This document shows, in pieces, positions 6,126 to 62,400 of a DNA stretch of 64,000 nt. The position numbers were made by a program, and so were the translations under genes. This stretch comes from Octopus sinensis. Taxonomy: Eukaryota. Position 1 is the stretch's first letter, and every line of letters starts with the position of its first letter. The stretch spans positions 3,100,001 through 3,164,000 of the forward strand of contig NC_043017.1 of the NCBI RefSeq assembly GCF_006345805.1. Direction: 5' to 3'. The notes beneath the pieces were generated by a model, which made no database searches, was not told the DNA's origin, and saw only the letters and a list, made by a program, of their open reading frames with translations.

Positions 6126-6213
6126 AGTAGTACAATTGTTTCATGCTACTTCATTTTATTAAACACTGTAAGTATTACATCAGTTTTAAAATGTTGAGCA
6201 ATCTTCAGCCACT
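6126..6213 (-). ncRNA. Type I hammerhead ribozyme fold (Penelope/retrozyme-type), intact core
   Basis: AGTGG-CTGAAGA-T-TGCT...AGCA-T-GAAA-CAATTG-TA-CTACT. Stem I AGTGG/CTACT, palindromic stem III ACAATTGT, GUA site, long stem II loop. Confidence 0.65.
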
Positions 6214-6914
6214 TATAGAAGTTTCCAGTCAAACGAACAATGCACATTCTTATCTCCATTTCATTTGCCAACATTATAAAGAGGGTAGATATATAGACAG
6301 AGAGGTTGATATCATTCTTAAGAACATGATAGTAGTAAATTCACTCTCTGACTGTAGATTTTTTCACTTTGTTATTTAGGGGGATTTTTATTTTTGATTG
6401 GATGGAGACAAAGAATTTTTTTCTATTTATAGATATAGGAAGGAGTAGTACAAATGTCAAAACCATTGGGTCGGTGGGCGCTTTCTGTCTTCTCCAATCT
6501 TTATCATCTTGTATTATTACAAGAAGGCGTTTACATTAACATCCCACCACAAAAAATTTAGTGGGTGCAAACGCTCCCTGTTCCCCAGCCAATGAGGGTT
6601 TCTGCTGTCCAGCGGAACCCTTGAATTTGTTTCCCTACCACCACCACTACCACCCACGGCAATTCAGCCTATTAAGGCGGACCCAAAAGTGCTGCCCTCA
6701 TAAAAGGGTTACCCGGGGCGCACCGTTCCCACTCGTTGAATTAATTGTACATGTAACTGAAATGGCCAGTCTTGTTAAACACGATGTAACGATGATTAAG
6801 GGTACACGTGTAAGCGAAATACTCAGCTATTAACCCGTTAATTCAAATAGCATATTGCTCACGCGATTGAGCAATTCATCGTTTGTTGCCAACTCGGTTG
6901 AGATATATAAATAC

Positions 6915-59400: not shown

Positions 59401-62400
59401 TTGATTTGTTCGACTAAAACACTTCAAGGCGGTGCCCCAGCATGGCCGCAGTCAAATGACTAAAATGAGTGATGATGATGATGATGATGATGATGATGAT
59501 GATGATGATGATGATGATGACGACGATGACGACGGTGATGATGATGGAGCGACAAGTAGAAAAAAAGAACAAAAGAATTTTTATGTCAATCTTAAATATT
59601 TTCGTTTTTTAAATTTTTTTCCCCATTTTTTGTCTTTCTAGGTTTACAAGACCGTTTGAGTGCTGGGGAGAAAGTATTTGCTGCGGAGGGTTACATGTTC
59701 GAGTTCAACAAACGTGGCTATCTGAAATCTGGTGCAATGGTACCGGAAGTGGTCATAGAACACCCAGATCTTGTCACAAAAATGCACGAAGAATTCGTCC
59801 ATGCAGGAAGTGACGTCGTTCTGGCTTTCACTGTACGTTTACAGCACTCACACACACACACACACATGCACAAACGCATATACGCATGCATACGCACACG
59901 TACACACACAGAAATATCCATGTGTGCACACACACACACACACATGCACAAACGCATATACGCATGCATATGCACACGTACACATGCACAGACCCATTGT
60001 TGTTGTTGTTACGAAGGCGGCGAGCTGGCAGAAACGTTAGCACGCCGGGCGAAATGCTTAGCAGTATTTCGTTTGTTGCTACGTTCTGAGCTCAAATTCC
60101 AACGAGGTCGACTTTGCCTTTCATCCTTTCGGGGTCGATAAATTAAGAACCAGTTGGGTACTGGGGTTGATATAATCGACTGCCCCCAAATTCCAGGCCT
60201 TGTGTCTTCGGCAGAAAAGATTATTATTATTATTATTCGTTTTCCTTCTTTCAAATTTGTCTCCATTTGTTGCTGTGTGTCTCCATTTGTTGCTGACACC
60301 TAGGGCAATACATTGCATACATTGATATACATTGGATGTCATGCACTGCTCTCTCATATAATAATAACTATCGGGAGCATGACCCGGGGACAACAAGATC
60401 AACGAGAAAGAAGAAGAAAAACAGCATTTATGACGATTTGAAATAGGATATATGCAGGTTGTAGACAATGAAGAGAATGAACGTGATATCAGTAGTAACT
60501 GGCACGCTTGGAACTATCTGCATTCGGTTACCAACAATGGCTCAAAAGCATTGGTACTAATGTAAAGATAGAACAGCTACAAAAATCACCATTGCTTAGA
60601 ACTGCTAGAGTTCTTTGCAGGGTCCTTGAACCATGATCAGGAAACAAGTACCACCATAGTCTGCTGGTTGTGGGCAGCTGACACTTTCCATCATACCCAG
60701 CAGAATAAGCTAGGGTTTTAATCAAATAATAATAACCCTTTTTATCATAGGCACAAGGTTTGAAATTTGGGGGTGAGGGACAGTACTTATTTCATCGACC
60801 CCGAAAGATGTAAAGCAATGTCGACCTCGGTGGAGTTTGAACTCAGAACGTAAAGACAAACGTTTACTACTTCTGACCACCACCACCACCACCACCACCA
60901 TCACACTTAACCCATATTTCTCTCATCCTTTACCAATTATCACTTTATTGTCAATCCAGATTTTTTCCTTCTTCTCTCCACAGTATTATGGTAACCGCCA
61001 CAAACTTCAAGTCATTGGACGCCAGGATGAAGTTGAACAGTTGAACAGAAAGGCTCTGAAAATGGCGCGCGAAGTGGCCGATAACACAGGGACTTTAATG
61101 GCGGGGAACTTAAGCAACACCACTGTTTTCGACCCTAGTGACAAGGACACTGTAGATACCGTCAACGCTATGTTTAAGGTGGGTATCTATTTATTGAAAG
61201 TCTTTTATTGAATTTGTTTTCCTGTCTTAAATCTTGTATTTCACAGAGGCTACTATTTTTATTACCCTAGGCTTTTTGTTTTCCTTTTCTTCCGTCCCTT
61301 TAGCCTTCTTCCTTCTTAATGTCCATCTATCTGAAGAAGGGCTTCAGCTCAAAATGTCAAAGACACTTCCACCTCCTCGGTCTCTCACTGGGCTTCAAAT
61401 TTAATATTATATCTTCACTTTAACTTTGTTGTTATTCAAGTCACACACACACGCACACACATACACACACACATACGCACACAAACGCACACAGACGCAC
61501 ACGCGCACACACGCACACACATACATGTAAATGATGTGCTTCTGCACAATTTCCGTCTATCGCATTTCAATGACAAAGCTTAAATAAAACGGAACTTGTG
61601 GCCAGGTTACTTGTCCCACGATCCATTCAGTGGGCACGAACCCAGAAGCATGCATCCAAATCTATACCCATATCTCATATATTTCAACGAAACTCATTCT
61701 TCTTCCAGGAGCAAGTGATATGGGCAAAAGACGAAAAAGCAGATTTCATTGTTGGAGAAACTTTCTACTCCCTCGCAGAAGCCATGTTGTCTTTGGAAGC
61801 TATCAAAGCTTATGGCGATGGTGAGTGATGTTTTAGTATGTATGTACGGTTATTTTTAACGACTTAGAGGAGAACTAACGGTTTTATGTTAGTTAGTTAA
61901 TTTTTTGGCTCAAAAAGCAAAAAGCAAGCCCATGTAGGGGGACATGGAGTTATGTACAGGGTGGTGTTCATGTAAAGAGTTCAGACCACTTGTGGTCAAG
62001 GGAGACTTTGAACCGAGCGCTCGTCGGCATCTTCACCATCTCGTCCGGCAGCTTATTCCATGGATCCGCAACCCGCACGGAGAAAGCCCCTCTCCTTACA
62101 AGGACTCCGAAATACGATGGACGAAAATAGAGATATACCGTATTTGATAGCATTTAAGATGCATAATGCTTCCAAAAAATGTCGCAAAAATTATCCTGGG
62201 ACCTGTAAGCAAAATTGGGCCCATATTCCATGCGTTAATGTATGAAAAACATTTTCCCCTGAATATGCGCTGCTGAGATTGGAGTCCATCTAATATGCCC
62301 ATATATCTTTTATGTCATTAAATGCGGTACTCACGATATGGTGGACTCTGTTATTGGTAAATAAGGTCAGCGGGTGATATTAAATTTAGCAACGTATTAG

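Follow-up and report, generated by a model that had tools for sequence, protein, structure and literature searches.

Hammerhead Motifs and Other Features of the Window

The window, by which we mean the whole 64,000-nt stretch of Octopus sinensis DNA analyzed here, is rich in microsatellites and carries hammerhead motifs on both strands. For a protein encoded in it, a single database homologue turned up, under the label Octopus bimaculoides. An earlier note had listed 14 hammerheads in it; the coordinates and motifs of all 14 match the sequence, and 13 are folds of dispersed repeat families, while the one at 35170 is unsupported. Hammerhead folds of type I were recognized by a core of CUGANGA, GAAA, and UH joined by three stems. 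The site in repeat E is given further below together with its insertion; the others are as follows.

6126–6213 (−): family H hammerhead, core intact, with a 60-nt insert in stem II
7986–8020 (+): minimal hammerhead of family A with mutations in stem III
10745–10810 (−): family D hammerhead with a bulged 15-bp stem I, in an old retrozyme-like unit of ~400 nt
10841–10910 (+): second family D copy, decayed and in inverted orientation to its partner at 10745–10810
14118–14155 (+): family A copy, core bases duplicated
35170–35217 (+): not supported as a hammerhead; flanks a long palindromic repeat at 34880–35151
40549–40615 (+): family B' hammerhead, in which an insertion shifts stem I; stem I is intact in its one homologue (L026)
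47439–47481 (−): family B hammerhead with one core change; most copies of the family are paired as fold-backs with a near-fixed center
47792–47943 (both strands): two family C hammerheads (U4C) in inverted orientation, the 3' end of a Penelope-like element with reverse transcriptase (RT) and GIY-YIG endonuclease
48135–48175 (−): decayed family A2 motif; the family core is itself noncanonical
53061–53119 (+): family G hammerhead, core intact, stem II weakened in this copy
61331–61365 (+): heavily decayed A-like motif, 27 bits to the A2 profile

The window also contains the following features.

6943–7014 (−): tRNA-Met(CAT) gene
17453–17650 (−): broken fragment, C terminus of another LINE ORF2
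34880–35151: near-perfect palindrome of ~270 nt between TA tracts, with one distant homologue (L308); likely another fold-back element end
39043–39594, 60777–61208 and 62423–62818, among others (both strands): repeated homocysteine S-methyltransferase exons, likely a tandem cluster
43267–43547 and 45035–45315: 281-nt inverted repeats, 97% complementary, 1.5 kb apart
46191–46691 (+): weak VRR_NUC match, whose motifs we take to resemble the restriction-like endonuclease of a non-LTR element

A strict hammerhead descriptor returned 0 to 3 sites in the window. A relaxed descriptor, which allowed an extra base after A9 and core variants, returned 8 sites scoring at least 9: seven of the 14 listed and an unlisted one at 7090, which is probably a chance match. 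Against these 8, 20 local dinucleotide shuffles gave a mean of 0.35 matches and a maximum of 1. The reversed window gave no match, and the plain core pattern occurs 10 times where 2.97 are expected. The hammerhead family is absent among the 150 Rfam matches listed for the window, out of 231; RF00163 searched genome-wide gave at least 7 matches, with 74 candidates scored, and is unsuited to counting.

Family profiles place 13 of the 14 sites in repeat families, an assignment that by itself would be circular because most profiles include the window copy. Independent copies of families A, B, C, D, E, G, and H were therefore taken from searches of the octopus genome itself (40 candidates scored for each), and homologues of 40549, 48135, 61331, and 35170 were sought among the loci already fetched. 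The window members are 7986 and 14118 (A), 47439 (B), 47795 and 47883 (C), 10753 and 10841 (D), 30112 (E), 53061 (G), and 6126 (H). The fetched loci hold one further copy of 40549 and 19 of 48135, and 61331 has a weak match only, to the 48135 family. The sole homologue found for 35170 has no core and reads as a plain hairpin, which leaves this site unsupported as a hammerhead.

Among fetched copies, the strict core is present in 5/30 of A, 23/30 of B, 15/30 of D, 17/20 of G, and 18/20 of H, and the U4C core in 19/20 of both C and E. Position 17, at which cleavage takes place, is G in 25 of 30 copies of family A, and A6 is replaced in 18 of 19 copies of the 48135 family, A2; the other families have a base other than G at position 17 and keep A6. 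Under the usual rules for hammerheads, G17 or non-A6 cores would not cut. Part of what had been described as damage is thus a family trait. Conversely, the cores called intact at 6126, 10753, and 53061 were overstated, since stem II is weakened at 10753 and 53061 and interrupted by the 60-nt insert at 6126. The term minimal type I does not fit C, D, and E, whose extended, bulged stem I resembles that of canonical retrozyme ribozymes, nor are the families all unrelated, as E has sister families J and K.

In the stems of E, J, and K, pair types change across 58 distinct motifs, which were selected by a filter requiring 4 of 6 stem I pairs; their 3–8 pair is CG in 28, UA in 12, and UG in 18. Family D retains 87.7% pairing over 23 pairs vs. 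38 to 49% when the alignment is slid, and shows no covariation above shuffles, as expected of neutrally decaying copies. Minimum-energy folds of single copies give at most a partial hammerhead-like shape at most sites, and the single copies that the window holds are mostly dead.

The rate of one motif per 5 kb that had been proposed as general holds for this window only (13 in 64 kb). In 38 stretches elsewhere, totaling 380 kb, the descriptor and the family profiles each found 10 motifs, or 1.7 per 64 kb, and the profiles found none in the 20 kb adjoining the window. The window is thus ~5 times denser than the sample, indicating a local swarm. Its count is inflated by two inverted pairs and by four motifs within 800 nt (47439–48175), and 9 of the 14 sites, which are not independent, lie within 300 nt of a TA tract, vs. 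28% of random positions; the inverted pairs and the clustering at TA tracts account for part of the local density. If the 380-kb sample is typical, the 2.72-Gb genome would hold very roughly 50,000 to 100,000 motifs. By itself, the swarm is a known pattern extended to octopus.

Penelope-Like Elements and Probable Retrozymes

The earlier note had attributed the motifs to Penelope-like elements and non-LTR retrozymes, a reading that stands at most sites: it is shown for family C, likely for H, indicated by architecture for D and E, and unproven for A, B, and G. At several loci, family C lies directly 3' of an ORF (634 aa) with RT and GIY-YIG domains, the RT motifs being recognized by eye and the GIY-YIG match being weak (E 0.006–0.06). 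Upstream of family H by 0.9 to 1.3 kb, on the same strand, is an endonuclease fragment related to that of C (L240, L247), and H likely terminates a Penelope-like element on its 3' side. Families A and G are each linked to a Penelope ORF at a single locus, with a microsatellite in between, and no Penelope ORF stands beside E, D, or B at the fetched loci. Two loci (L109, L110) carry a family C Penelope fragment joined to another fragment, which resembles a PIF1-type helicase.

Partial tandem copies and inverted 5' copies occur in B, C, E, G, H, and D. Copies of family B (L038–L067) are mostly fold-back pairs with a near-fixed center ~45 nt before the ribozyme, and this pairing places a hammerhead on both strands. 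Short noncoding tandem units with one hammerhead were found for E (364 nt), D (about 400–410 nt), and J (410 nt), at one to three loci each. In D and E, the extended, bulged stem I is as described for non-LTR retrozymes in the accessible text of PMC7229834. Contigs from three runs, presumed to be RNA, cover the E unit; transcript ends, strand, and level are not readable from contigs.

As far as the available part of PMC4209133 goes, the minimal hammerheads of Penelope-like elements are type I, with a short palindromic stem III and an extra base after A9, and include a U3–A8 variant, solo and opposite-strand copies, and thousands of copies per genome. The octopus motifs are alike in type, stem III, the A9 extra base, U3–A8, and copy layout, whereas their family-wide U4C (C, E), G17 (A), and non-A6 (A2) cores have no counterpart in that part of the paper. 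Animal non-LTR retrozymes are described as noncoding units of 170 to 400 nt with one canonical type I hammerhead (PMC7229834; bioRxiv 10.64898/2026.07.22.740005, both in part); the octopus units agree with them in size, noncoding character, partial tandems, and Penelope as the proposed mobilizer. Octopus is not mentioned in the accessible portion of PMC7229834.

An ORF1-Only Element at the Repeat E Site

The U4C hammerhead at 30112 belongs to repeat E, which is interrupted in the window by a LINE-type insertion. This insertion and the promoter motif before it (29329–30100) had been overlooked in the earlier reading.

29197–29387 (+): partial upstream unit of repeat E, with a U1/U2-type upstream motif at 29329–29335
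29388–29402 (+): 5' copy of a target site duplication of 15 nt, where transcription of repeat E is predicted to begin
about 29403–30085 (+): ORF1-only Tx1/L1-type element with an internal deletion; ORF from 29529, ~124 codons left; AATAAAG at 30074
30086–30100 (+): 3' copy of the target site duplication, 15 nt
30101–30391 (+): repeat E, hammerhead (30112–30158) and body; U4C core, extended stem I; unit 364 nt elsewhere

The family has at least 150 matches. Full copies are units of ~1.6 kb without ORF2, whose single ORF of 444 to 474 aa encodes a zinc knuckle and RRM-like folds; a low-confidence structural model (pLDDT 54) is likewise compatible with an RRM-like fold. The protein is 21 to 39% identical to ORF1 of the two-ORF LINEs compared in this genome, with parts at 30 to 39%. 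The protein alignment has 14 rows, one stop-bearing ORF being left out. Of 28 pairs examined for dN/dS, 4 were saturated; it is 0.04 to 0.27 in 23 of the 24 computable pairs and 0.55 in one, and the gene is under purifying selection. A gag-only LTR element was considered and rejected on account of the RRM matches, the target duplications of 8 to 19 nt, and the homology to LINE ORF1. A close parallel is HAL1 (half-L1), which has ORF1 only and a LINE-like 3' end and requires ORF2 in trans. The octopus family is similar in its single ORF1 under purifying selection, its LINE-like 3' end, and its lack of ORF2 in the unit, so that ORF2 would have to act in trans, and differs in being from an invertebrate, in its RRM–RRM–zinc-knuckle ORF1, and in being site-specific.

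The best 30 loci reduce to 27 distinct arrays. In 24 of them the 3' end can be seen, and 21 of these 24 run into a hammerhead whose core lies 35 to 40 nt after AATAAA, within a repeat of family E, J, or K. On the ORF1-only tree, copies with E targets and copies with K targets interleave, with at least 4 changes each, and near-identical cassettes sit in both. A tight junction pattern was seen at 5 sites only, one of them with an ORF2-bearing element at the E site. In a divergent subfamily (eight arrays picked for being tandem: L228–L231, L233, L234, L237, and L238), no hammerhead ends were found, and its targets gave no Rfam match in the six loci scanned; several flanks have a TATA-like motif ~30 nt upstream. 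At L243, two other ORF1-like copies are stacked before a full two-ORF LINE, a different lineage with the same habit.

An Autonomous LINE at the Same Site

A 5.5-kb LINE occupies the same site of the hammerhead repeats as the ORF1-only family, a fixed target flanked by a duplication. Its ORF1 carries a zinc knuckle and its ORF2 an AP endonuclease, RT, and zf-RVT; from this domain layout and its targeting, we provisionally assign it to the Tx1 clade; the homologues found include no named Tx1 reference. To characterize its 3' flanks, 30 copies were retrieved by a query ending short of the target. Of these, 24 continue into a K-type hammerhead, 10 of them assigned by script and 14 by eye, while 4 continue into a tandem element at the same site, 1 into U2, and 1 elsewhere. 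The U2 copy adjoins the first base of the gene, which is complete and scores 183.6 bits, and a related copy occupies the E site (L251). No insertion was found at any of 20 fetched U1 loci, which were chosen as the best intact genes. At the junctions of the LINE and the ORF1-only family, no poly(A) tail was seen. The element within U2 at L323 begins with K sequence at its 5' junction, and the 5' junction leader at L200 is another E variant; these donor-type leaders suggest that the donor RNA starts at the start site of its target.

A Likely snRNA-Type Promoter in E, J, and K

In the snRNA genes of the host, TCAGT lies 56 to 59 nt before the gene in 17 of 19 distinct U1 upstream sequences and in 7 of 7 for U2. 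The same motif, or its J variant, lies 53 to 59 nt upstream of the target duplication in 28 of 35 distinct junctions (58 nt in the window), and 7 of the 35 have no exact upstream motif. These 35 junctions represent native upstream DNA, rows that follow another element or have a misassigned duplication being excluded. Independence holds among E, J, several K subfamilies, U1, and U2, but not among copies of one family. The insertion site itself is ~25 to 33 nt 5' of the ribozyme core in E, J, and K. By motif and spacing, E, J, and K likely carry an snRNA-type promoter. Ty3 and TRE5-A, too, are placed by their spacing from the promoter of a small RNA and not by an extended sequence, using Pol III factors; the octopus LINE is alike in its fixed distance, while tethering, which in those elements is by Pol III factors, is here only putative.

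Interpretation and Alternatives

We propose, with a probability of roughly 0.7, that the motifs are the hammerhead ends of repeat families, likely Penelope-like elements and retrozymes, and that one group of retrozymes is the insertion site of the LINE and the ORF1-only family, likely aimed at snRNA-type start sites. A more far-reaching proposal, to which we give somewhat less than an even chance, is that the LINE lineage and its satellites home to snRNA-type starts by position and not by sequence, with self-cleaving retrozymes as their main host, promoter and hammerhead as the start and stop of the RNA, and a three-tier chain of Penelope, retrozyme, and LINE or half-LINE.

The strongest competitor, which we regard as unlikely though worth serious weight, is that the LINE endonuclease recognizes a short sequence common to the 5' ends of retrozymes and U2, the promoter link being incidental. 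K targets and U2 have TT(T/C)ATCG at the nick in common, and Tx1 target choice is credited to the endonuclease in the accessible text of PMC4494074. The first bases of every target of the young LINE form a similar stretch, pyrimidine-rich with ATC(G), so that recognition of sequence alone could be enough. On the other hand, the common sequence at the nick is only ~5 to 7 nt, the duplications of E, J, and K differ in sequence although near-identical cassettes occupy E and K, and the spacing of the upstream motif is constant.

It is less probable still that retrozyme and ORF1 make up one composite element, a retrozyme that encodes a protein and is mobilized as a whole. Unit–cassette–unit layouts of ~2.0 kb do have a ribozyme at each end, and their RNA could be cut and circularized; but inverted arms of the same insertions are without the ORF1 cassette, and unlike cassettes are stacked at one site with no ribozymes between them (L232, L235, L236). 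These observations, together with the interleaving of E and K targets, argue for repeated insertion. Moreover, the length of the duplication is not constant and its sequence is that of the local variant, tree and target disagree, and the same cassette junctions have so far recurred at two loci only within a local duplication (L138).

A service of the swarm to the host, such as processing transcripts of the surrounding methyltransferase gene cluster, appears very improbable: the window is ~5 times denser than sampled DNA and holds the repeated homocysteine S-methyltransferase exons, but its copies are as decayed as other family members or worse, lie on both strands, and tend, as nonindependent sites, toward TA tracts. 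Chance matches in AT-rich DNA hardly come into consideration, since, although 35170 and 7090 look like chance and several listed copies fail the strict descriptor, the excess over shuffles and the multicopy families, with cores cleaner than those of the window copies, refute this for 13 sites as to family membership.

Returning to start-site-directed insertion into retrozymes, we suggest the following mechanism. A retrozyme unit would be transcribed from its snRNA-type promoter, its own ribozyme would cut the RNA into monomers of ~360 to 410 nt, and Penelope RT would reinsert copies of more than unit length, often fold-back, at TA repeats; these steps follow the model of PMC4209133 and PMC7229834, as set out in the parts available. 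The LINE would nick 3 to 4 nt before the start site and borrow the promoter of its target, its RNA thereby beginning with target sequence. This RNA would run on beyond the AATAAA of the element into target sequence and be cut there by the ribozyme ~70 nt farther along, and the target-derived RNA ends would pair with the nicked DNA. Such pairing is proposed to explain why poly(A) tails are missing and why the elements drift from one target to another. The choice of site may involve a short sequence, tethering to the promoter complex, or RNA pairing.

Relation to Known Systems and Significance

In the open-access papers searched, we found neither a Tx1 element in a retrozyme nor an snRNA-type motif with LINE insertions in ribozyme repeats. 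A figure by Kojima is said to list unnamed satellite targets, possibly including ribozyme repeats. The accessible part of a repeat study of O. vulgaris reports L1-Tx1 and Penelope families and makes no mention there of ribozyme, hammerhead, or snRNA (PMC13282606). Newt satellite 2, a hammerhead repeat, is cited as using an internal snRNA-type promoter (PMC2220036, in part). The octopus families likewise combine a hammerhead repeat with an snRNA-type promoter, which here is deduced from the U1 and U2 genes of the host; unlike newt satellite 2, they carry LINE insertions, and the families are unrelated as far as compared. The Tx1 elements Keno, Tx1-Mar, Kibi, and Koshi occupy a fixed site of a multicopy target, with tandem stacking and proposed cotranscription with the target, in the available portions of PMC4494074 and PMC4640811; the octopus LINE matches such target-specific elements in its AP endonuclease, fixed multicopy target, and tandem stacking. 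Keno and Utopia insert before nucleotide 39 of U2 (same part of PMC4640811), whereas the U2 insertion of the octopus LINE has a duplication spanning roughly −3 to +11, and the LINE is found mainly in ribozyme repeats of differing sequence.

Ribozyme-bearing Penelope ends, retrozymes, and target-specific Tx1 elements are thus known, and more weight falls on the LINE system that likely targets start sites. The family-wide noncanonical cores (U4C, G17, and non-A6) provide natural tests of the hammerhead rules. The insertion system points to a likely start site and promoter for animal retrozymes, elements whose transcription has received little attention, and a LINE target that is apparently set by promoter position or by the element's own RNA ends offers a testable route to target switching.
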